Notes: generated by a model not told the origin, from the sequence alone. DNA of 46,619 nucleotides from Nitrospirota bacterium (GCA_013151495.1 JAADIE010000081.1:1-46619); one strand, 5' to 3'; numbered from the stretch's first letter, positions 15,853 through 26,114 are shown. Made by a program: numbers and translations.

Positions 15853-17280
15853 TTATAACTTATTGCCAGAAAAGTTGTTTCCATTGTCCTGCTGGAACTT
15901 TACAGGCAGGATAAATCTGACCTTTGTACCCATGCCTTTTTGGCTTGAAAATTCAATTCTACCCCCGTGCTCTTTAATGACCTTTTTTGTCATGGCAAGT
16001 CCCAATCCCAGCCCCTGTTTTTTTGTTGTAAAAAAGGGCTCAAACACATGATCAAGCTGTTTTTCATCCAGTCCCTCACCGGTATCCGTAACCTCAAGTA
16101 TAGCGCTGTGGTTGTGTTTAAACAACTTTATTGTTAAATCTCCACCCCGGGGCATTGCCTGAATGGAGTTTAGTATGACATTAAATAGACATGTCTTGAG
16201 TAGTTCCGGATCTACCTCAGCATTTAAAGGTGAGTCCGGGTACTCTCTTTTTATGGTTATACCTGAGCGTTCGGCCCTGGCCCTGATCAGAGAAAGGGTA
16301 TCTTCTACAAGGGTGATGAGGTCTGTCTTTTCAGGTTTCAGTCTAAGTGGCTTACCATACTGCAAAAAACTTTCAACCAGACTGTCCAGTCTTTTTATCT
16401 CATTTTTTATATTTAATAGCAACTCCCTGGTTTCTTCCCTGCACTGACCCATCAGGTGGTCTATGCTGAGGCTAATAAAATTGAGAGGATTTCTTATTTC
16501 ATGGGCCACTGAGCGGGAAAGCTCTCCTATGGTCGACAGATGCTCTGCCTCTCTTAGACGCTGTTCAATCCGTCTTAGTTCAGCGAGTCTTGCAGTCATC
16601 TGATTAAAACTTTCTTTAAGTTCACCAATTTCGTCATTTTCTGTAACCTTCAATTTTACATCCAGGTCTCCAGAGGATATAGCACTTGCGGCAGAAACAA
16701 TTTCCTTAATAGGACGGGTATATCTTTTGGCCAACCACACAGTTGCAATAAATCCTATCAGCATTATAGTGGCTGTAACGAGCAGACGAAGCTTCATGTT
16801 TTTCTTCAGTACAGCCATAATGTCCCTGTTGCTAATGGTCAGATGAATGTAACCCTGATGCTCCCCCTTTATTACTATTGGCAGCACTATATGATAAAGC
16901 TGTCCTTCTTTGGTAACAAACTCCCCGAGCTCTGATTTGAATATCAGTTCTGTGATGTATTCGGGGGTGGTTTCTCCGACTTTAAAGGGGTTTGTGCTGG
17001 CCTGTATTCTGGTTTCGCTGTCAATAATGCTTATTTCCTTGATCCCTTCGGTACGCAGATTTTTAAGATAATTAAAGAGCCCCATAATATCCTTTTGTTC
17101 GGTTTTGGAGATCTCCTGAATGGCAAGATGTATTGCCTCGGTGATTTCAGTTGTTTTCTTCTGAAGCTTTTCTAAAAGCAGCCGTTCCGAGTAAAGCCCA
17201 AAAAGGGTCATCATCAGTATCAGAGATGCACTGAGAGAGACTATCATCAGGATTAGCTTTCGGTTAAGGGTCCATTTCAT
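15853..17280 (-). CDS. membrane sensor histidine kinase (TM-periplasmic-TM-HAMP-HisKA-HATPase)
   Basis: Two TM segments, HAMP (DEIGEL..FNQM), HEIRNPL H-box, DTGEG, EPFFTTK, GLGLGL. Start at ATG 17280 with GGAGG SD. Confidence 0.92.
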   Translation of the reverse strand: MKWTLNRKLILMIVSLSASLILMMTLFGLYSERLLLEKLQKKTTEITEAIHLAIQEISKTEQKDIMGLFNYLKNLRTEGIKEISIIDSETRIQASTNPFKVGETTPEYITELIFKSELGEFVTKEGQLYHIVLPIVIKGEHQGYIHLTISNRDIMAVLKKNMKLRLLVTATIMLIGFIATVWLAKRYTRPIKEIVSAASAISSGDLDVKLKVTENDEIGELKESFNQMTARLAELRRIEQRLREAEHLSTIGELSRSVAHEIRNPLNFISLSIDHLMGQCREETRELLLNIKNEIKRLDSLVESFLQYGKPLRLKPEKTDLITLVEDTLSLIRARAERSGITIKREYPDSPLNAEVDPELLKTCLFNVILNSIQAMPRGGDLTIKLFKHNHSAILEVTDTGEGLDEKQLDHVFEPFFTTKKQGLGLGLAMTKKVIKEHGGRIEFSSQKGMGTKVRFILPVKFQQDNGNNFSGNKL

Positions 17281-18337
17281 CAGAAGGCTCCTCCACGATC
17301 GTTCCTCCACCAATAACTATATCGTGCTTATAAAAGACAGCTGCCTGCCCGGGGGCTGGTGCCCACTGAGGTTCATCAAACTCAATAAAACAACTGGCAG
17401 GCCCTGTTTTTACAAGCCTTGCAGGTTCATCCTTCATCATGGAGCGGATTCTGGCTGTAATCCTTTCGACAGGCTCTGCTAGCCAGTGTACATCCTCTAC
17501 ATAGACCCTTTTTTTGAATGCCTCCTGGCGGGGTCCAACATAGATGGCGTTTTCCTCTGGTTTTATCTTTATTACATAGAGTGCCTCGGTAGATGGTACA
17601 TTAATTCCTCTACGCTGGCCTATCGTATAGTTGAATATACCCTTATGGGTTCCTATTTGGTTTCCATTTATATCATAAATGGGGCCTGGTCTTTGTGCCT
17701 CAGGCTCTATGGTCTTTATAAACCCTGAATATCCTTTCTCACCAGTGAAACAGATCTCCACACTTTCAAGTCGGTTTGCTGAGGGAAGAGAAAGTTCACG
17801 GGCAATGTGCCTGACATCATCTTTCAGGTAGTAGCCAAGAGGGAAAAGACAGTGCTCAAGCATCCAAAGGGGCAACACATATAGAAAGTAAGACTGGTCC
17901 TTGGCTGTATCAGTGGCCTTTGCAAGATTCACCCTGTCGTCTATCCTGAGCACCTTAGCATAGTGGCCAGTAGCAATAAACTCGGCCCCTTCTGTCCTGG
18001 CAACATCTTCCAGGATCGGGAATTTGATAAATTTATTACACAGAATACAGGGGTTTGGCGTGATGCCTTTCAGATAACCTTTTACAAAAGGCTCGATAAC
18101 CATTTCCATGAACTCTTTACGGGCATTTATGGTTTTATGGGGGATGTCGATAATTTCTGCAGACTCCCGTGCAGCATTAACAGCCTCAAGAGAACAGCAG
18201 GTTCGAGGATTAATTCGCCCACGGGTTTCAAAAAGTAGAAGACTTACCCCTAAAACATGGTATCCCTGCTTTTTCAGTAGATAAGCAGATACCGACGAGT
18301 CGACCCCACCACTCATTCCAAGGATAACCTTTTTCAT
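17264..18337 (-). CDS. mnmA: tRNA 2-thiouridylase MnmA
   Basis: MSGGVDSS, TPNPCILCN, ATGHYA, KDQSYFL, TIGQRRG, APGQAAV. Start at ATG 18337. Confidence 0.97.
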   Translation of the reverse strand: MKKVILGMSGGVDSSVSAYLLKKQGYHVLGVSLLLFETRGRINPRTCCSLEAVNAARESAEIIDIPHKTINARKEFMEMVIEPFVKGYLKGITPNPCILCNKFIKFPILEDVARTEGAEFIATGHYAKVLRIDDRVNLAKATDTAKDQSYFLYVLPLWMLEHCLFPLGYYLKDDVRHIARELSLPSANRLESVEICFTGEKGYSGFIKTIEPEAQRPGPIYDINGNQIGTHKGIFNYTIGQRRGINVPSTEALYVIKIKPEENAIYVGPRQEAFKKRVYVEDVHWLAEPVERITARIRSMMKDEPARLVKTGPASCFIEFDEPQWAPAPGQAAVFYKHDIVIGGGTIVEEPSDEMDP

Positions 18338-18371
18338 GAAATAAGTATAACAAAAAGCCCTGTTCATTAAA

Positions 18372-18759
18372 CTATCTAAGTAATAGGCACCCAATCTTTT
18401 CTCTGATATAATGTAAGAAACCCGGAGGCTTTACTAATTCAAGCTCCTTTTCAGGTGACAAACTGAATACCCTGCAGGGTATTATGACCTGCATGATTGG
18501 GTTGGCAATGCAATGTTGCCAGCTGTAAATATACCTGAATCTATGAAAGCCACAGAAGGTCCTGGTCCTGAAGCTCACAACCGCCCTGGTTCCTTTATTG
18601 GCCCCATGGCTGCGAGTTTTGAGCCTTTCCTCCTGATGCTCTTCCAAAAGGTGATCTTGAGACAGCAGAAGTATATGGGAAAAGAGTGGCAGAGACAACG
18701 GTAAGATTTTTAAGAGATAAATAAAACAACAAGACCTTCGTTTTGAATATAAAAGCCAT
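18372..18759 (-). pseudogene. possible small hypothetical gene, apparently frameshifted near its 5' end
   Basis: SD-like AAGGAAGGG plus ATG at 18759 is out of frame with the open frame 18767-18372. Removing one base would join them into about 128 aa with a hydrophobic N-terminus. Confidence 0.3.
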
Positions 18760-18841
18760 CCCTTCCTTTATTGTGTTTGTGGGCTAAAATAACCGTAGTA
18801 TCGCATCTTTTTATTGATTGCACAGGTGCCTTTCAAAACTG

Positions 18842-18871
18842 TTTACCACAGGACAACTTATAGGGTACAAT
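18842..18871 (+). promoter_or_regulatory. sigma70-type leaderless promoter of the bEBP gene
   Basis: TTTACC-N18-TACAAT, 6 nt before ATG 18878. Confidence 0.6.
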
Positions 18872-18877
18872 CTCCAT

Positions 18878-20200
18878 ATGGTTAGATATATGATTGTGGA
18901 GGACGATGAATTAATTGCTACCATGTTAAGCGAACTTATTACATCAATAGGTGGCAGGGTGCATTATGCAAAAAATGCAGAAGAGGCACTATCTCTAACC
19001 ACTCTGTATAGAATCGATATAGCCCTGATTGATCTAATGCTACCGGACATTGATGGTATCGAGTTAATCGGAAAACTTCGGTCTTTACAGCAGGATATCT
19101 TTTTTATTGTTATTACCTCAGTATATGAGCCAAGTGTTATAGTGAGGGCTATAAAAGAAGGGGCCTCTGAGTACTTAACAAAACCTTTCGAGGTTCAATA
19201 CCTCAAGAAGATACTGACCAATTACCAGGAACTTGCAATACTGAAGAAAAGAGAAAAGGCCAGGCTGGAGAGCATACCTCCACTTGAGGAGATCCTGGGA
19301 ACAAGCAAGGTAATGAAGGACCTTAAAAGGACAATTGCAGATATTGCCAGATACGATAGTACGGTTTTACTTACAGGACCTACCGGGGTTGGAAAGGGAT
19401 TGATTGCAGGCGTAATTCACAGGCTAAGTAAGAGGGCTGATGGTCCTTTCATTACCTTCGACTGTACTACAGTACCAGAGAACCTTATGGAGGCTGAGCT
19501 TTGTGGTTATAAAAGAGGGGCCTTTACAGGTGCAGACCATGATAAAGTCGGTTTAGTAGAAATGGCTGATGGAGGTACTCTTTTTATTGATGAGATAGGG
19601 GAGTTACCACTGCACCTCCAGACAAAGCTCCTCAGGATAATCGATGAGGGGAGTTTCAGGAGGTTAGGAGATGTAACTGATCGAAGGGTTGATGTAAGGG
19701 TAATATCAGCTACAAATAAAGACCTCAGATCAATGGTGAAAGAGGGAAGATTCAGAAACGACCTTTATTACAGACTGGATGTAATAAGTATAAATGTGCC
19801 ACCTCTTTCAGAAAGAGGAGAGGATGTATGGTTGCTGGCTAATTATTTCTTATGCTATTACATAAACAAAACCGGTAAAAGGATAAAGGGTTTTTCAAAG
19901 GAGGCAGAACGGTTTATATGGCAGTATAGCTGGCCTGGTAATGTGAGAGAGCTTAAAAACCTCATTGAAAGAGCTGTTGTTATGGCCGAGGATGAATGGA
20001 TAAGACCCTCTGACTTTATGATCCCCGAGTATACGATCAGATCAAGAGAGTTCCGGTTCCCTGAGACTCCATTACCCTTAAAGGAGATCGAAAAAAGGTA
20101 TATCAAGTATGTCCTGTCACTGACCGGTAATAATAAAAGTAAAGCAGCAAAGCTTCTGGGCATAACCAGAAATACACTGAGAGAAAAATTAAAAGAATAA
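18878..20200 (+). CDS. sigma54-dependent response regulator (NtrC/AtoC family: REC-AAA+-Fis HTH)
   Basis: REC (EDD, DLMLP, TKPF), Walker A GPTGVGK, GAFTGA, FIDEIGE, WPGNVREL, HTH NKSKAAKLLGITRNTL. Confidence 0.95.
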   Translation: MVRYMIVEDDELIATMLSELITSIGGRVHYAKNAEEALSLTTLYRIDIALIDLMLPDIDGIELIGKLRSLQQDIFFIVITSVYEPSVIVRAIKEGASEYLTKPFEVQYLKKILTNYQELAILKKREKARLESIPPLEEILGTSKVMKDLKRTIADIARYDSTVLLTGPTGVGKGLIAGVIHRLSKRADGPFITFDCTTVPENLMEAELCGYKRGAFTGADHDKVGLVEMADGGTLFIDEIGELPLHLQTKLLRIIDEGSFRRLGDVTDRRVDVRVISATNKDLRSMVKEGRFRNDLYYRLDVISINVPPLSERGEDVWLLANYFLCYYINKTGKRIKGFSKEAERFIWQYSWPGNVRELKNLIERAVVMAEDEWIRPSDFMIPEYTIRSREFRFPETPLPLKEIEKRYIKYVLSLTGNNKSKAAKLLGITRNTLREKLKE

Positions 20201-20201
20201 A

Positions 20202-20237
20202 TGGTCAGATTTTAACCAGCTGGTCAAAAATCGATCA
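20202..20237 (+). promoter_or_regulatory. tandem 17-bp imperfect palindromes, putative bEBP enhancer (UAS)
   Basis: TGGTCAGATTTTAACCA (20202-20218) and TGGTCAAAAATCGATCA (20221-20237), about 60-100 bp upstream of a -24/-12 box. Confidence 0.65.
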
Positions 20238-20299
20238 CCTATATTGTTTTGCCTCTATAAAAAAGGCCACAATCAATACCTTTCATCCAGTGCAATTTC

Positions 20300-20315
20300 T
20301 GGCATTTCTCTTGCA
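20300..20315 (+). promoter_or_regulatory. sigma54 -24/-12 promoter of the two-CW gene
   Basis: TGGCATTTCTCTTGCA has GG-N10-GC spacing. Near-IHF site AATCAATACCTTT at 20271-20283. Confidence 0.8.
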
Positions 20316-20354
20316 CACTACTAATAGCCAAAAAAACAGGGAGGTGATTCGAGG

Positions 20355-20570
20355 ATGATGAACTGCTGGGAGTTCAAGAAATGTGGAAGAGACAAAACTG
20401 GTGATTGTCCTGCTTATACTCGAAGGGCGGGTAAGGTTTGCTGGATTGTGGCAGGAACAATGTGTGATGGGGAGGTTCAGGGTACCTTTGCCAAAAAGAT
20501 TAGCACCTGTATCAAATGTGATTTCTATCAATACATGAATAAAGAGGCCAGAGATAAACTAAAATCCTAA
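20355..20570 (+). CDS. small Cys-rich two-CW domain protein
   Basis: NCWEFKKC..CPAY..CWIVAGTMC..CIKCDFY; SD GGGAGG/GAGG upstream. Confidence 0.85.
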   Translation: MMNCWEFKKCGRDKTGDCPAYTRRAGKVCWIVAGTMCDGEVQGTFAKKISTCIKCDFYQYMNKEARDKLKS

Positions 20571-21404
20571 ATTTAGTATTGATTGTTCTTTAATTTCTTT
20601 ATAGGAGAAGACAGGGCCATCTTTACAGATATATAGCTTTCCTGCATAACAGTGGCCACACTTGCCCACACCACATTTCATGTGGGCCTCCAGTGTGGTT
20701 ATTATTCGTTCTTCTGGCATCCCAAAGAAGAAGAGGTCCTGCATGGCCGCCCTGATCATAACCTCAGGGCCACATATAAAGGCCACAGATTTTTTAAAGT
20801 CCACCTCAGCCAGGTGCCACAGAGTGGTTACCAGTCCTACATTTCCCTTCCAGCCATCTGTTGGCCTATCTACGGTTAAAACTACATTGACCCCCTGTTG
20901 TTTCCACTTCCTGGTTTCGTCGAGGTAGACAATATCATCAGGGCTACGGCTTCCATAAAGAAGGGATACCTTATACTTCTTTCTCTTCATAAAGGTCTCT
21001 ATTAAAGGTCTAAGTGGAGCTATTCCAATTCCACCTGCCACTATCACCACATCACGACCCTTAGCAAGTTCTAAAGGAAATGCCCTGCCATAGGGGCCTC
21101 GTATCCAGAGGTTATCGCCTTCTTTCAGCTGATGAATCCTGCCTGTAACCATCCCTACTCTTCTGATACAGAACTCGATTCTGGTACTTTTTCTGGCCAG
21201 AGATGTAACCGATATGGGAACCTCACCAGCTCCCCAGACAGAAACCATAAAGAACTGACCGGCCTTATAATGTACTGGTTCTTCGAGTTCAAGAGTAAAA
21301 AGGCTTACATCTGAGGTTTGTTTTTTTATGCGCTCTATGGTACCTTTTATGGGTCGGTAGATATTGTTTTCCTGTTTTGCGGGCTCTCTGTTTTTAACCT
21401 TCAT
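20559..21404 (-). CDS. FAD/NAD(P)-binding [2Fe-2S] subunit, AsrB / sulfhydrogenase gamma (HydG) / FlxA-like
   Basis: GQFFM..GEVPIS, RGPYG, AGGIGIAPLR, CGPEVM, MKCGVGKCGHC..CKDGPVF. Start at 21404 with GAGGAG SD. Confidence 0.9.
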   Translation of the reverse strand: MKVKNREPAKQENNIYRPIKGTIERIKKQTSDVSLFTLELEEPVHYKAGQFFMVSVWGAGEVPISVTSLARKSTRIEFCIRRVGMVTGRIHQLKEGDNLWIRGPYGRAFPLELAKGRDVVIVAGGIGIAPLRPLIETFMKRKKYKVSLLYGSRSPDDIVYLDETRKWKQQGVNVVLTVDRPTDGWKGNVGLVTTLWHLAEVDFKKSVAFICGPEVMIRAAMQDLFFFGMPEERIITTLEAHMKCGVGKCGHCYAGKLYICKDGPVFSYKEIKEQSILNLGF

Positions 21405-22449
21405 CAGTAATCTCCTCACCATTCAGGGCAATGCTTTTGAGTTTCATACATACACTGGCCATGTCTATTCTGCCAGGGCAGGTAACTGTGCAGCGGCCAC
21501 ACCCCACACAACCAAAACTTTCAAGCACATCAGGGTAGTGTATCAGCTTATGGAAAAACCATCGTTTCGTTCTTTTTATCCTCTCTTCGTTGGGGAGTAT
21601 TCCACCAGCCAGCCTGGTAAAGCCTTTAAAAAGACAGCTATCCCACAGCCTTGCTCGTTCCACTGTGTCGTTATAACTTCTGTCGACCACTGTAAAGCAG
21701 GTACATAAGGGGCACTGGTATACACAACCACCACACTCAAAACACCTCGAGGTTATGCCCTGCCAGAAGCTGTCCTTGATGCGGCCTGATTTTATAAGTT
21801 GCCTGCTTTGCTGAAGGCTTATTCTTTTTTGAAATCGTGCCTTTGAGCTAAGCAATACCTCGTACTGGTCGTCGTAGTCTGATTTTTGTGGTCTACTAAA
21901 AAGAAAATGATAGTTCTTTATGATAGATATAGCCCACTCAGACTCGGCCTGAACAAAGTACCTATCTCCAAGGTCTGTAAGCTGTATATCGAAGCCCTGT
22001 TTAAGATAGGGGCCTGTGTCGAGTCCTATACAGAAACAGGTAGGGTCTGGGTTGTTGCAGACTATGGAGATAAGCAGGCTGTTTTCCCTGCGGCTTTTAT
22101 AATAGGGATCGGGCATCTCATCAATGAAAAATCTATCAAGAGTGTTCAGGGCTGCCACATCACAGGAGCGGAGTCCAAATATGACCCTTTTTGTTTTAGA
22201 GATGGAATCAACTACCCGGTCATCCTTTTTTGAGTACTCAAAGAGCCTTTCATACTGGGGCAGGAAAAACTCCTTGACGCTTGGTAGCAGGGACGGACAG
22301 TTTAACTCTATCTTATGGATATGCTCAACCTGTTTAAATACAATGTCTCCCACCTGATCGCGCATTGGTGCTATAAGCTGCATCTGGTTTCTCAGCTGTC
22401 GCAGCCAGTAAGACAGGTGGTTTTTATCCAGAATCCATTCCCTCTTCAT
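21394..22449 (-). CDS. 4Fe-4S dicluster subunit, AsrA / sulfhydrogenase beta (HydB) / FlxB-like
   Basis: GLRSCD, C..PDPTCFC, CFECGGCVYQCPLCTCF, WDSC, CVGCGRCTVTCP. Confidence 0.88.
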   Translation of the reverse strand: MKREWILDKNHLSYWLRQLRNQMQLIAPMRDQVGDIVFKQVEHIHKIELNCPSLLPSVKEFFLPQYERLFEYSKKDDRVVDSISKTKRVIFGLRSCDVAALNTLDRFFIDEMPDPYYKSRRENSLLISIVCNNPDPTCFCIGLDTGPYLKQGFDIQLTDLGDRYFVQAESEWAISIIKNYHFLFSRPQKSDYDDQYEVLLSSKARFQKRISLQQSRQLIKSGRIKDSFWQGITSRCFECGGCVYQCPLCTCFTVVDRSYNDTVERARLWDSCLFKGFTRLAGGILPNEERIKRTKRWFFHKLIHYPDVLESFGCVGCGRCTVTCPGRIDMASVCMKLKSIALNGEEITDEG

Positions 22450-24545
22450 TCCTCTATCCTCAGGCTTTCAAGCTCCACCTCAGGGGGCTTGGGGGTTTTA
22501 ACTACAGGCATCTTATAAAGAGGCTCTATCCTGACAGCACAGACCTTGTATTCCGGGATCTTTGCCTTTGGATCAACTGCAGGGTTGGTAAGTCTGTTTA
22601 CTGCTGCCTCAGCATAATGAAATGGAATAAAAACCGTGCCCTGCGGTATTTTGCCGGTCAGCTTTGCTTTTACCTCAATTGAACCTCTACGAGAGGTAAC
22701 CTTTACTGGCCAGCCATTTTTGATTCCCAGTGAGTCTGCGTCTTCAGGATTTATCTCAACAAAACATTCTGGTTCTTCCCTTTCAAGTACCACCGTTCGT
22801 CTACACATGGTGCCAGTATGGTAGTGGAAATAGATTCTTCCTGTTGTTAAAAGGAAGGGGTATTCTTTATCCGGTGGCTCATCAGGGGGAATGTAATCCA
22901 CAGTTATAAAGGTTCCAAGCCCCTTTGCAAATTTCTTCCGATGTAAATAAGGTGTGCCCGGGTGGTCCTGAGTAGGGCAGGGCCACTGAAGCCCGAACCC
23001 TTCTTTCAGCCTATGATGAAGTATCCCTCCATAGGAGGGAGTTAGCAGTGCAATCTCTTCCATAATTTCATAGGTGCCACGATAGTGCATCCTGTAGCCC
23101 ATTCTTGTGGCAAGATCAACTATAATCTCCCAATCTGCCTTTGCCTCACCTGGTGGCGAGATGGCCCTCTGAAGAAGCTGTACCCTGCGCTCAGTGTTTG
23201 TATAAGTGCCATCCTTTTCTGCAAAGCTTGCAGCAGGTAATACAACATCTGCATAGTTCATGGTTTCATTGGGAAATATGTCCTGCACAACTACAAAGTC
23301 TATCCTTTCCATGGCCTTTTCAAGATGTCCAAGGTCGGGGTCTGAAAGCAGAGGGTTTTCTCCCATTACATAAAGGGCCTTCAGGCGTCCCACATAGGCC
23401 ATATCCATCATCTCCATAAGGGTCAACCCGGGCTTGGGGTTTAGCTTTTTCCTCCAGGTGTTCTGGAATTTTTTTCTTGCCCTCGGGTCTGTAACAGTCT
23501 GATAACCGGAAAAGACATTTGGTAATGCACCCATATCACAGGCACCCTGAACATTATTCTGACCCCTGAGAGGATTTATGCCCGACATGGGTAGCCCTAT
23601 ATGGCCTGTTAACATAACAAGATTTGCCAGTGCCCTTACATTGTCCACCCCAGTGATATGCTGGGTAATACCCATTGCATAAAAGAGCATGGAGCGTTTT
23701 TCCATTGCATAAATACGAGCCACCCTTCTAAGGAGCTGTATTTTTACCCCGGTTATAGCCTCTACCTTGGCAGGATCAAAGGTCCTGAGGGTGTCAAGGA
23801 AGGAGTCAAAGTTTTCTGTCCTCCGTTTAACAAAATCAATATCTACAAGACCTTCGGTAACAATGATATTCATCAAGCCCATCAGAAGTGCAACATCAGA
23901 ACCAGGACGATGCTGTAGATGGATATGGGCAAACTCTGCAAGCTGTGTTTTCCTTGGATCAGCCACTATCAGGGTTGCTCCACTGTCAACTGCATCAAGC
24001 ATATGCATGGCTATCATGGGATGTTGTTCAGTGGTATTGGAGCCGATCACAAAAAGTACCCTGGCATTAATGATTTCATTTATAGAGTTTGTCATTGCAC
24101 CTGAGCCAAAGGCTGCAGCAAGACCACCCACGGTAGAGGAATGACACAGCCTGGCACAATGATCTATGTTGTTGGTTCCGACAACAGCCCTTGCAAACTT
24201 CATCATGAGGTAATTTTCCTCGTTAGTACACTTTGCAGAGCTTAGCAAACCAATGGAATCGCTTCCGTAAAGCCTTTTTATTTCTGTGAGTCGGCGGGCA
24301 ATCAGATCGAGGGCCTCATCCCAGGTTGCCCTTACAAGAGTGCCCCTTTTTCTAATCATTGGAAATTTAAGCCTGTCAGGATGATGGACAAACTCATAGC
24401 AGTTCCAGCCCTTAACACAGAGGCTTCCACGATTTACTGGGTGGTTTATGCAGGGTGATACACCTACAATACGGTCGTCCTCAACATGTAGGTATAGTCC
24501 ACAACCACAGCCACAATAGGGGCATACTGTGAGAATCTTGTCCAT
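22446..24545 (-). CDS. fdhF: formate dehydrogenase catalytic subunit (Mo/W-bisPGD, FdhF/FdhA-like, Cys-type, cytoplasmic)
   Basis: CPYCGCGC..LCVKG Fe-S motif, CARLCHSST (Cys ligand plus His), LRGQNNVQG, PEYKVCAV. No Tat signal. Confidence 0.93.
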   Translation of the reverse strand: MDKILTVCPYCGCGCGLYLHVEDDRIVGVSPCINHPVNRGSLCVKGWNCYEFVHHPDRLKFPMIRKRGTLVRATWDEALDLIARRLTEIKRLYGSDSIGLLSSAKCTNEENYLMMKFARAVVGTNNIDHCARLCHSSTVGGLAAAFGSGAMTNSINEIINARVLFVIGSNTTEQHPMIAMHMLDAVDSGATLIVADPRKTQLAEFAHIHLQHRPGSDVALLMGLMNIIVTEGLVDIDFVKRRTENFDSFLDTLRTFDPAKVEAITGVKIQLLRRVARIYAMEKRSMLFYAMGITQHITGVDNVRALANLVMLTGHIGLPMSGINPLRGQNNVQGACDMGALPNVFSGYQTVTDPRARKKFQNTWRKKLNPKPGLTLMEMMDMAYVGRLKALYVMGENPLLSDPDLGHLEKAMERIDFVVVQDIFPNETMNYADVVLPAASFAEKDGTYTNTERRVQLLQRAISPPGEAKADWEIIVDLATRMGYRMHYRGTYEIMEEIALLTPSYGGILHHRLKEGFGLQWPCPTQDHPGTPYLHRKKFAKGLGTFITVDYIPPDEPPDKEYPFLLTTGRIYFHYHTGTMCRRTVVLEREEPECFVEINPEDADSLGIKNGWPVKVTSRRGSIEVKAKLTGKIPQGTVFIPFHYAEAAVNRLTNPAVDPKAKIPEYKVCAVRIEPLYKMPVVKTPKPPEVELESLRIEE

Positions 24546-24559
24546 TGTGCTTTTATTTA

Positions 24560-24575
24560 TGCAAGGTATGTGCCT
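24560..24575 (-). promoter_or_regulatory. sigma54 -24/-12 promoter of the fdh operon
   Basis: AGGCACATACCTTGCA on the minus strand (GG-N10-GC), 14 nt upstream of ATG. Confidence 0.75.
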
Positions 24576-24595
24576 TTAATTAGATTATAAAGAAA

Positions 24596-24608
24596 AATCA
24601 ATAAGTTA
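24596..24608. promoter_or_regulatory. IHF binding site
   Basis: AATCAATAAGTTA is an exact match to WATCAANNNNTTR, between the sigma54 box and the putative UAS. Confidence 0.7.
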
Positions 24609-24630
24609 TTAGAATATATTATCAGGAATA

Positions 24631-24669
24631 TGTACTAAAAGTAACCACCTTGTGTGGAAAAATTACCCA
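24631..24669. promoter_or_regulatory. tandem 17-bp boxes, putative bEBP enhancer for the fdh operon
   Basis: Minus strand reads TGGGTAATTTTTCCACA and TGGTTACTTTTAGTACA, 22 bp apart. Confidence 0.55.
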
Positions 24670-24806
24670 TACCATCTTTTCTGAATATAAATTAATTTAA
24701 TGTTGCTATAACTATTATTCATGATTTATGCTTGACTTAATGCCTGAAGGCATGTTATTACTTATTGGCTTTTTTACCTACACCAAACCGATACACAGGA
24801 GGTCAA

Positions 24807-26114
24807 ATGGCACTTCTTACTTTCAAAGGTGGCGTTCATCCTCCAGAAAACAAAGAGCTTTCAGCAAAAGCACCTATCAGAGAGGCTGCACCGCCAAAAC
24901 AGGCAGTAATTCCTTTAAGTCAGCATATTGGGGCACCCTGTAATTGTGTAGTAGAGGTTGGGCAGGAGGTCAAAAAGGGGCAACTCATTGGTGAACCTAC
25001 TGCCTTTGTTTCAGCTCCGGTTCATTCTTCGGTGTCAGGAAAGGTGGTTGAGATTACCCAGATTCCTAATGCTATGGGCAGGCTGGTGCAGGCAGTGGTA
25101 ATCGACAACGATGGAAAGGAAGAATGGGCTCCCCTTCAGGATAATCCGGATTATATGAACCTATCACCAGAGGAGCTGAAGGAAAAGATTAAAAATGCAG
25201 GTATTGTTGGAATGGGTGGTGCAACATTTCCTACTCATGTGAAGCTCTCTCCACCAAAGGAAAAGCCTATTGATGTGGTTATTATCAACGGTGCCGAATG
25301 CGAGCCCTATCTCACAGCCGACCATAGATTGATGGTTGAAAATCCTGAACAGGTCATAGAGGGGCTCAAGATACTGATGAAAATACTGGGTGTTTCCAAA
25401 GGCTATGTGGGGATAGAGAACAACAAGCCCGATGCAATCGAGAAGATGACAGAGGCTGCCTCAAAGGAGCCAAACATTGAGGTCAAGGCCCTTCAGGTAA
25501 AGTATCCTCAGGGTGCTGAGAAGATGCTGATCAAGGCCATTATCGACAGAGAGGTCCCGGCTGGTGGACTACCCATGGATGTAGGGGTGGTGGTTCAGAA
25601 TGTCGGTACAGCCGTAGCCATTTTTGAGGCCTGCAGATATGGAAAGCCTTTGATTGAGAGGATTGTTACCGTTACAGGACGGGGTGTTAAAGAACCGGGA
25701 AATCTTAAGGCGAGAATCGGTACCCCAATAAGGCAGCTTATTGATGAGTGTGGTGGCTTTGTAGACAATCCCAAAAAGGTTATCCTCGGTGGACCAATGA
25801 TGGGTTTTGCCCAGTTTTCTCTTGATGTGCCTGTTACCAAGGGTACTTCGGGAGTTCTGGTATTATCTGAGACCGAGTATGTTTCTTCTGAGAAGTATGG
25901 CCCATGCATTCGTTGTGGCAGATGTATTGAGGCCTGTCCTATGGGGCTTATGCCTTTGATGCTCAGTATTCTTTCAGAAAAGGGCTTCTACGAGGATACC
26001 AGGGAATACAATATCATGGATTGTTTCGAATGTGGAAGCTGTACATATGTGTGTCCGTCAAAAAGACCAATCGTGCATCATATAAGATTGGCTAAATCAC
26101 TAATAAAAAGATAA
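24807..26114 (+). CDS. rnfC: Rnf complex subunit C
   Basis: TFKGGVHP, GMGGATFPTHVK, NGAECEPYLTAD, KYPQGAEK, two 4Fe-4S motifs. ATG 24807 with AGGAGG SD. Confidence 0.96.
   Translation: MALLTFKGGVHPPENKELSAKAPIREAAPPKQAVIPLSQHIGAPCNCVVEVGQEVKKGQLIGEPTAFVSAPVHSSVSGKVVEITQIPNAMGRLVQAVVIDNDGKEEWAPLQDNPDYMNLSPEELKEKIKNAGIVGMGGATFPTHVKLSPPKEKPIDVVIINGAECEPYLTADHRLMVENPEQVIEGLKILMKILGVSKGYVGIENNKPDAIEKMTEAASKEPNIEVKALQVKYPQGAEKMLIKAIIDREVPAGGLPMDVGVVVQNVGTAVAIFEACRYGKPLIERIVTVTGRGVKEPGNLKARIGTPIRQLIDECGGFVDNPKKVILGGPMMGFAQFSLDVPVTKGTSGVLVLSETEYVSSEKYGPCIRCGRCIEACPMGLMPLMLSILSEKGFYEDTREYNIMDCFECGSCTYVCPSKRPIVHHIRLAKSLIKR

Follow-up and report, generated by a model that had tools for sequence, protein, structure and literature searches.

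Known systems closest to the locus

In enterobacteria, ZraSR-zraP is a sigma-54 two-component system in which the activator turns on a small accessory protein and the operon of its own sensor. A second system of this kind is the FhlA-fdhF formate regulon of E. coli and Salmonella (both as given in an excerpt of PMC4987338). In Geobacter sulfurreducens, the formate dehydrogenase is RpoN-dependent according to an excerpt of PMC2725144. Here we describe a locus from a 46,619-nucleotide stretch of Nitrospirota bacterium DNA (GCA_013151495.1 JAADIE010000081.1:1-46619), referred to below as the window. The locus contains the gene of an NtrC-type response regulator (the local activator), the gene of a small two-CW domain protein, and a formate dehydrogenase (fdh) operon, with a predicted sigma-54 promoter before each of the latter two. 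The reading that we favor, at a probability of about 0.62, is that two separate sigma-54 circuits lie side by side here, and that fdh would be under a different activator encoded elsewhere in the genome. Binding, transcription starts, sensed signals, and the identity of the second activator are all inferred from comparisons of sequence.

The first circuit resembles ZraSR-zraP in having an NtrC-type regulator with REC, AAA+, and HTH_8 domains whose targets would lie beside its own gene, and in having as its output a small protein plus, in most relatives, its own sensor kinase. It differs in that the small protein is not ZraP but a cytoplasmic two-CW protein with seven cysteines, and in that the regulator scores 317 bits with the ZraR model, for which the cut-off is 760. 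In addition, the predicted enhancer is located directly behind the activator gene and not in a divergent intergenic region.

The second circuit shares with FhlA-fdhF a cytoplasmic formate dehydrogenase with a sigma-54 promoter and an enhancer about 100 bp upstream, both of which are predicted here. Its candidate activator likewise combines GAF, AAA+, and HTH_8 domains, and one activator is predicted to serve several operons of one pathway. However, the enhancer palindrome differs from the FhlA site tabulated in that excerpt (PMC4987338), and the co-regulated genes are corrinoid methyltransferases instead of hydrogenase 3. By analogy, the fdh/methyltransferase regulon most likely works like FhlA-fdhF without being a member of that family, with the sensing of formate as a putative feature. 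The excerpt on Geobacter sulfurreducens (PMC2725144) also places a formate dehydrogenase operon of an anaerobe under a sigma-54 promoter, but that enzyme is periplasmic, whereas the one here is of a cytoplasmic, NAD(P)-linked type, and the activator family differs. Taken as a whole, the locus would represent the standard enhancer-dependent promoter architecture in an uncultured Nitrospirota lineage.

Genome and comparison set

The source assembly comprises 1.73 Mb in 128 contigs with 43% G+C, and the 46.6-kb window is its contig C112. Comparisons were made among metagenome-assembled genomes of one order (317 genomes, 23 of them in the family), which are mutually related, so that the counts given below are not independent. 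This genome is labeled G000, G001-G003 are sister genomes, and G007, G013, and G017 make up genus g5. Orthologs of the local activator were defined by an E of 1e-125 or better and have 53-67% identity, and the remaining matches, at 45% or less, are paralogs. The related-locus search with the activator protein yielded 1 ortholog and 79 paralog loci.

The sigma-54 consensus is TGGCAC-N5-TTGCW, and the E. coli consensus for integration host factor (IHF) is WATCAANNNNTTR. This genome contains rpoN (485 bits against a cut-off of 277), the genes for both IHF alpha and IHF beta, and 12 strong matches to the sigma-54 activator domain PF00158.

The local activator and the predicted two-CW promoter

The local activator consists of a REC domain (PF00072), a sigma-54 AAA+ domain (PF00158), PF25601, and an HTH_8 domain (PF02954), with PF00072, PF00158, and PF02954 above their cut-offs. 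The GAFTGA loop and the Walker motifs are visible in its translation, and its start at 18878 was set by the N-termini of the orthologs. The protein misses every equivalog model. In addition to the ZraR score given above, it reaches 384 bits of the 714 needed for AtoC, 362 of 559 for NtrC, and 251 of 830 for FhlA (NF011958).

Two nucleotides past the activator stop codon begins box A1, a predicted enhancer site, and the weaker box A2 follows at a start-to-start distance of 19 bp (Table 1). The A boxes have the consensus TGGTTA-N5-TAACCA, a 17-bp palindrome. For scoring, a symmetric matrix was made from 12 boxes of the six other genomes that carry this module, with this genome excluded (the local matrix). 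Under this matrix, A1 tops all of the 1.73 million positions of the genome. The end of A1 is 82 nt from the -24 element of the two-CW promoter, and relative to the predicted start, A1 and A2 are centered at about -116 and -97.

In the window, the -24/-12 elements before the two-CW gene and before fdh are the only matches to the consensus at one mismatch or less, and each has one mismatch with GG and GC intact. Shuffled sequences gave a mean of 0.89 matches, and 19 of 100 shuffles had two or more, which means that the count by itself is not significant. The case for function therefore rests on position, orientation, and conservation across genomes. The IHF pattern is not enriched in the window (2 matches compared to a shuffle mean of 3.03), and a sigma-70 scan found no promoter in either intergenic region, before the two-CW gene or before fdh.

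Conservation of the module is extensive. An ortholog of the activator is found in 7 of the 317 genomes of the order, this genome counted, and in all seven the box pair occurs right after the activator stop codon, with a spacing of 19 bp in five loci, 20 bp in one, and 21 bp in one. Behind the boxes and ahead of the next gene, all seven loci also have a -24/-12-like element that departs from the consensus at 1 to 3 positions. The distance from the first box to this element is 89 to 137 nt, except for 259 nt in one genome that has a run of N in that stretch. The two-CW gene comes next in six of the seven module genomes, and a 1200-aa hybrid kinase (TM-PAS-GAF-PAS-HisKA-HATPase-REC; TM, transmembrane) comes next in four of the six other genomes. 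The G002 module has, right behind its promoter, a gene whose start is similar. No homolog of the sensory half of the hybrid kinase was found in this assembly. An exact IHF-like motif is present at the corresponding position in one of the seven orthologous loci, and this is not the locus of the present genome. That the local activator, the two boxes, the sigma-54 promoter, and the two-CW gene would form one unit is well supported by this comparison. The G002 module occupies a separate 3.8-kb contig, on which the activator ortholog is followed by the boxes, the promoter, and a kinase-like gene.

At the level of the whole genome, the top 45 sites under the local matrix have a sigma-54-like element within 350 bp only at A1, at A2, at box B1 upstream of fdh (see the next section), and at one intragenic site. 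The second-best site, C122:4594, and the other high scorers inspected were rejected as targets; they lie in or at coding regions and have no sigma-54 element. The sigma-54-like element at C63:13151 was also rejected as a target of the local activator, since it sits within a coding region. We are confident of only one predicted target of the local activator in this genome, which is the two-CW promoter.

In the proposed circuit, dimers of the response regulator would bind A1 and A2 behind their own gene, and DNA looping would bring them into contact with RNA polymerase-sigma-54 at the promoter, which would then open. In most relatives, the same promoter would also drive the 1200-aa hybrid sensor kinase. 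This shared promoter suggests that the ancestral unit was a two-component system amplifying its own sensor together with a seven-cysteine protein. In this genus, the big kinase appears to be gone, leaving the two-CW gene as the only recognizable output.

The predicted fdh promoter and its putative enhancer box

An earlier note on this DNA proposed a self-contained regulon, in which the local activator would co-induce the two-CW gene and the fdh operon through four 17-bp boxes of one kind. The sequence elements that it quoted are all present, with small coordinate shifts, and the two predicted starts (20326 and 24549) are as it gave them. The two promoters also have the matching layout that it described, as the centers of the fdh boxes B1 and B2 lie at about -112 and -90 from the predicted start. 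However, the pattern TGG-N12-CA that unites the four boxes is a loose one. By the matrices described here, A1 is a strong site of one motif and B1 of another, A2 is weak for the first motif, and B2 does not exceed background. In addition, the start-to-start distance of B1 and B2 is 22 bp, not 19.

The second palindrome has a consensus of about TGnGGAA-N3-TTCCnCA, and its matrix was made from only six boxes, which belong to URO-D-operon promoters of G001-G003. In this genome, the second matrix ranks B1 first and two boxes on contig C85 second and fourth, and gives A1 only 7.0 bits. The two promoters thus do not appear to carry sites of one motif, as local-matrix scores are 19.7 bits for A1, 12.8 for B1, and 3.5 for B2. 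The B1 boxes of relatives also score better with the second matrix than with the local one, at 18.0 compared to 6.2 bits in G001, 22.4 compared to 7.1 bits in G002, and 17.8 to 19.1 compared to 15.6 to 15.7 bits in G007, G013, and G017. Overall, box B1 at fdh has 17 to 22 bits in six genomes. A pattern derived from the fdh boxes has three matches in this genome, namely B1 and the two adjacent C85 sites.

Among relatives, the fdh promoter is also distributed differently than the local activator. In 19 of the 23 family genomes, fdhA has an ortholog (72-84% identity) with the same two downstream genes. A -24/-12 element with up to two mismatches lies 28-30 nt before the fdhA ATG in 8 of these 19 and 62-160 nt before it in 3 more, whereas 2 have versions with three mismatches and 6 have none. 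The last group includes G010 and G014, two genomes of a third genus in which the local activator module is present. Alignment of the upstream regions shows B1 to be common to this genus and genus g5. The g5 genomes have no ortholog of the local activator, and their top matches are reciprocal with other paralogs of this genome. Site and activator thus do not co-occur in either direction, since G007, G013, and G017 have the fdh box and promoter without the ortholog, and G010 and G014 have the ortholog without them. No activator gene was found beside fdh in the fetched flanks of 11 loci.

These results divide the earlier proposal. A regulon of the local activator is well supported for the two-CW unit, given the box pairs in seven of seven loci and the first rank of A1, but not for fdh, where B1 is better by 8.7 bits with the second palindrome. 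Self-containment is not supported, as B1 is conserved without the activator, the fdh promoter can be absent where the activator is present, and the genome has 12 activators to choose from. The boxes are conserved in relatives as had been expected, the A boxes in all seven loci and B1 in g5 and the sister genomes, but B1 does not track the activator.

Several features of the fdh upstream region vary among relatives. An exact IHF consensus is found in 2 of 13 regions, those of this genome and one other. In G001 and G002 (loci L139 and L175), about ten tandem repeats of 9 bp fill the space between box and promoter, and in this genome the same place has an AT-rich stretch with the IHF consensus. 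Similar 9-bp arrays are located upstream of the methyltransferase-operon boxes described below (L181 of G003 and L182 of G001).

A candidate activator for fdh

On C85, a sigma-54 element with one mismatch, 51-75 nt downstream of the two boxes, precedes an operon encoding two URO-D-family methyltransferases, an MtrH-like protein, a B12-binding protein, and a RACo-type activase. The same two-box arrangement before the methyltransferase operon occurs in three sister genomes, including G003, which has no ortholog of the local activator.

A GAF-AAA+-HTH_8 protein encoded on contig C44 is the likely fdh regulator, as judged from the following comparisons. Full-length orthologs of this GAF-type activator (63-94% identity) are found in 8 of the 23 family genomes. 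None of the eight genomes of genus g4 and neither of the two of g8 has one, and both genera are without B boxes at fdh. In G007, G009, and G015, which represent three genera, the GAF-type gene is 2-3.5 kb from the methyltransferase operon, which in these genomes combines B boxes of about 20 bits with a sigma-54 element that has one mismatch. The C-terminal helix-turn-helix (HTH) of the C44 protein is similar to its counterpart in the local activator, with differences in the second helix. This fits two similar but distinct palindromes, and it also leaves room for cross-binding. On C44, the gene adjoins a metF-like gene (named from its N-terminus, without a family scan).

The second circuit would then consist of the fdhA-asrA-asrB-like operon on its own sigma-54 promoter, with B1 as an enhancer of a different palindrome. 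The same palindrome also precedes the sigma-54 promoter of the C85 methyltransferase operon, and the C44 protein would most likely be the activator of both, in a one-carbon regulon similar to that of FhlA-fdhF. Such a regulon would join formate dehydrogenase and corrinoid methyltransferases under one GAF-type activator in organisms that are represented by metagenomes only.

A site of the second palindrome was also seen inside the coding region of the GAF-type gene (C44:8830-8846; L241 3350; L242 9695). It scores 18-21 bits, lies about 255-290 nt from the gene start, occurs in three of the four genomes inspected, and is third in rank in this genome. The site may serve autoregulation, or it may simply reflect a conserved peptide. 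Second-matrix sites on C97, near another activator gene, were dismissed because they lie inside an aminotransferase gene.

One activator or two

Some observations weigh against the assignment of the two promoters to two circuits. On the two-CW side, a run of N lies between boxes and promoter in one sister genome, and the -12 doublet is GT or GA, not GC, in four of the seven modules. On the fdh side, B1 has a local-matrix score (12.8 bits, rank 29) that equals the 12.2 bits of A2, and the end of B1 is 78 nt from its -24 element, near the 82 nt of A1. Because of this score and this similar distance, the local activator could also bind B1. The two motifs are alike, and some boxes score high with both matrices, as does the G002 URO-D box with 18.6 bits under the local matrix; the second matrix, moreover, comes from only 6 sites in three closely related genomes. 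G002, G003, and G017 (93%, 96%, and 75% complete) all carry B boxes, yet the search detected no full-length ortholog of the GAF-type activator in them. In this genome, the GAF-type gene is on another contig, and its link to fdh is motif sharing alone.

The alternative closest to the earlier proposal would have the local activator occupy the A and B pairs alike and induce the two-CW gene together with fdh, either by itself or jointly with the GAF-type activator on a box that is shared or hybrid. The box-to-start layouts of the two promoters match, B1 is 29th among the 1.73 million positions under the local matrix, and one B1 half-site fits the local consensus. The activator gene is also 4.4 kb from the fdh promoter, with the same order in one sister genome. 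Nevertheless, we consider this alternative unlikely, since B1 fits the other palindrome better by 8.7 bits, B2 is at background, and the local matrix gives no more than 6.2 and 7.1 bits to the B1 boxes of two sister genomes. Both the box and the promoter of fdh persist in genomes that have no ortholog of the activator and are missing from others that have it. In G002, the activator ortholog is on a different contig with its own boxes and promoter, and no sigma-54 element is present in the 213 bp that separate the contig end from the two-CW gene next to fdh. Separate circuits for the two-CW gene and for fdh remain the preferred reading. It suggests that look-alike palindromes a few kb apart can serve different activators, and that neighborhood plus a loose pattern is insufficient to assign a regulon.

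The predicted leader of fdhA

The region just before fdhA bears on the promoter in another way. The Shine-Dalgarno core is found in none of 19 fdhA orthologs, compared to 14 of 14 for the URO-D gene. A TGC followed by a TATAAT-like hexamer is present before fdhA in most of the family genomes, with the hexamer ending 7-8 nt short of the ATG, and the -12 element of the fdh sigma-54 promoter overlaps the TGC of this extended -10-like hexamer. The predicted sigma-54 start at 24549 gives a 4-nt leader. With the overlap and this start position, either sigma factor would give a leaderless or nearly leaderless fdhA mRNA. The hexamer of this genome is a poor one, and its sigma-54 element comes close to the consensus.

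One tentative possibility is a leaderless fdhA mRNA (a leader of 3-4 nt) whose sigma-54 promoter coincides exactly in position with an ancestral extended -10 promoter of the sigma-70 type. The start point would have been passed between sigma factors across the family, and B1 of this genome would have drifted to a hybrid that both the GAF-type and the local activator can use.

Another scenario, in which the fdh sigma-54 element is a by-product, is in our view quite unlikely. Here leaderless fdhA would come from the ancestral sigma-70 extended -10, and the -12 match would be nothing but the TGC of that element. This would agree with the hexamer and the Shine-Dalgarno counts just given, with the GA that three g4 genomes have in place of GG at the -24 of fdh, and with G010 and G014, which keep the hexamer without any -24 element. 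However, this genome has a poor hexamer together with a single-mismatch -24/-12 element, and a sigma-70 scan of 24546-24806 found no promoter. Furthermore, a GGCAC or GGCAT pentamer is present at the exact spacing in 7 genomes of three genera, and in six of these seven an enhancer box of 17 to 22 bits accompanies it. A sigma-54 promoter at fdh, under an activator of its own, remains the reading that we prefer.

The two-CW protein

An alignment of 18 two-CW sequences shows the invariant residues C4, W5, C10, C18, C29, W30, C37, C52, and C55, which amount to seven cysteines and include two Cys-Trp pairs. Two-CW genes are widespread in the order, with about 880 matches in 215 of the 317 genomes and up to 15 copies per genome, and none were found in 14 control genomes. 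By analogy with ZraSR-zraP, the protein is most likely a small metal- or redox-active accessory of the signaling system. An AlphaFold2 model made from the same alignment has a mean pLDDT (predicted local distance difference test) of 53 and is too poor to use. A weak search for longer two-CW proteins returned one protein of 130 aa and no signaling fusions, and a search of the literature found no paper using the term "two-CW domain".

A general link between two-CW genes and sigma-54 was considered and rejected. Of the 30 top-scoring two-CW loci of the order, those with a sigma-54-like element in the upstream 260 nt number 2 (control strand, 1), and an activator gene is close by at 1 locus. The predicted sigma-54 link is particular to this short two-CW subfamily. 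Tying the family to a dedicated sigma-54 two-component system with a well-defined operator would provide a handle on its role.

This genome has three two-CW genes. The second of these (C64:936-1118, minus strand) has a two-mismatch sigma-54-like element 87 nt upstream. Its tail-to-tail neighbor in this region (C64:1-1540) is a histidine kinase of which the contig start holds the C-terminal part, and which has 41% identity to the hybrid kinase in the modules of relatives. In G002, the two-CW gene beside fdh (contig C4, L175 1-213) is preceded by several GC-rich hairpins.

Gene order and neighboring genes

The gene order is a sensor kinase (minus strand), mnmA (minus), an open reading frame (ORF) of 108 aa (minus), the activator (plus), the two-CW gene (plus), the fdh operon (minus), and the rnf operon (plus). 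The coordinates are collected in Table 1. An Rfam scan of 18000-25500 with E up to 1 gave no match, and an atlas search returned nothing but unnamed clusters.

Table 1. Genes and predicted regulatory sites of the locus, with the candidate fdh regulator on contig C44
Feature	Position	Strand	Basis
HAMP-HisKA-HATPase sensor kinase	15853..17313	-	Pfam domains
Sigma-70-like promoter before activator ATG	18842..18871	+	Consensus scan, 9/12 positions; pattern match only
NtrC-type enhancer-binding response regulator (local activator)	18878..20200 (ATG 18878, stop 20198-20200)	+	ORF and Pfam
Box A1, strong palindromic enhancer site (predicted)	20202..20218	.	19.7 bits, genome rank 1, local matrix
Box A2, weaker partner site	20221..20237	.	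12.2 bits, rank 43, local matrix
IHF-like site, one mismatch to WATCAANNNNTTR	20271..20283	+	Weak evidence, read from sequence
Sigma-54 promoter of two-CW gene (predicted), TGGCATTTCTCTTGCA	20300..20315	+	One mismatch to consensus; predicted start 20326
Two-CW domain protein, 71 aa	20355..20570	+	NF045718, 74 bits against cut-off 35
FAD/NAD(P)-binding iron-sulfur subunit, flavoprotein (AsrB/HydG-like), third fdh-operon gene	20559..21422	-	Pfam/NCBIfam, all below equivalog cut-offs
4Fe-4S subunit (AsrA/HydB-like), second fdh-operon gene	21394..22449	-	Pfam/NCBIfam, synteny
fdhA, formate dehydrogenase alpha subunit, cysteine type	22446..24545	-	TIGR01591, 866 bits against 666, full length
Sigma-54 promoter of fdh (predicted), AGGCACATACCTTGCA	24560..24575	-	One mismatch; predicted start 24549, 4 nt before ATG
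Exact E. coli IHF consensus between box and fdh promoter	24596..24608	+	Pattern scan
Box B2	24631..24647	-	3.5 bits with both matrices; not a significant site
Box B1, strong second-palindrome site (predicted)	24653..24669	-	21.5 bits, rank 1 (second matrix); 12.8 bits, rank 29 (local matrix)
rnfC, first gene of divergent rnf operon	24807..26114	+	TIGR01945, 614 bits against cut-off 246
GAF-AAA+-HTH_8 activator, candidate fdh regulator	C44:7623-9101		Pfam scan only

The candidate promoter of the activator gene itself is sigma-70-like and stops 7 nt short of the ATG, so the activator mRNA may also be leaderless. No terminator-like site for the activator gene was found in a terminator scan. It is very improbable that A1 and A2 are instead a site for some other DNA-binding protein or a structural end of the activator transcript, in spite of their start 2 nt past the stop codon and the lack of a terminator-like site, since they are two separate 17-bp palindromes with AT-rich cores and not a GC-rich hairpin with a T run, and since they strictly co-occur, in seven of seven loci, with the activator ortholog and a downstream -24/-12 element at the enhancer-typical distance of 89 to 137 nt.

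The activator may be paired with the kinase at 15853-17313. This pairing is suggested by the neighborhood and by the models, as AtoS is the top NCBIfam model for the kinase (below its cut-off) and AtoC is the top model for the activator. The order kinase-mnmA-activator also occurs in one sister genome.

The two-CW gene is convergent with the fdh operon, and its ORF has a 12-bp tail-to-tail overlap with the last ORF of that operon (20559-20570). No terminator-like site was found at this overlap, and two sigma-54 transcripts would collide there. At its other end, the fdh operon is divergent from the rnf operon, and rnfC and fdhA have a common intergenic region of 261 bp.

The fdhA product has no signal peptide region, and the fdhA-asrA-asrB-like synteny is found in 11 of 11 fetched relatives. 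A second formate dehydrogenase alpha gene, 56% identical, is located at C111:12970-14991. It has one in-frame TGA, which is also present in most of its family orthologs, and it probably encodes a selenocysteine form of the subunit.

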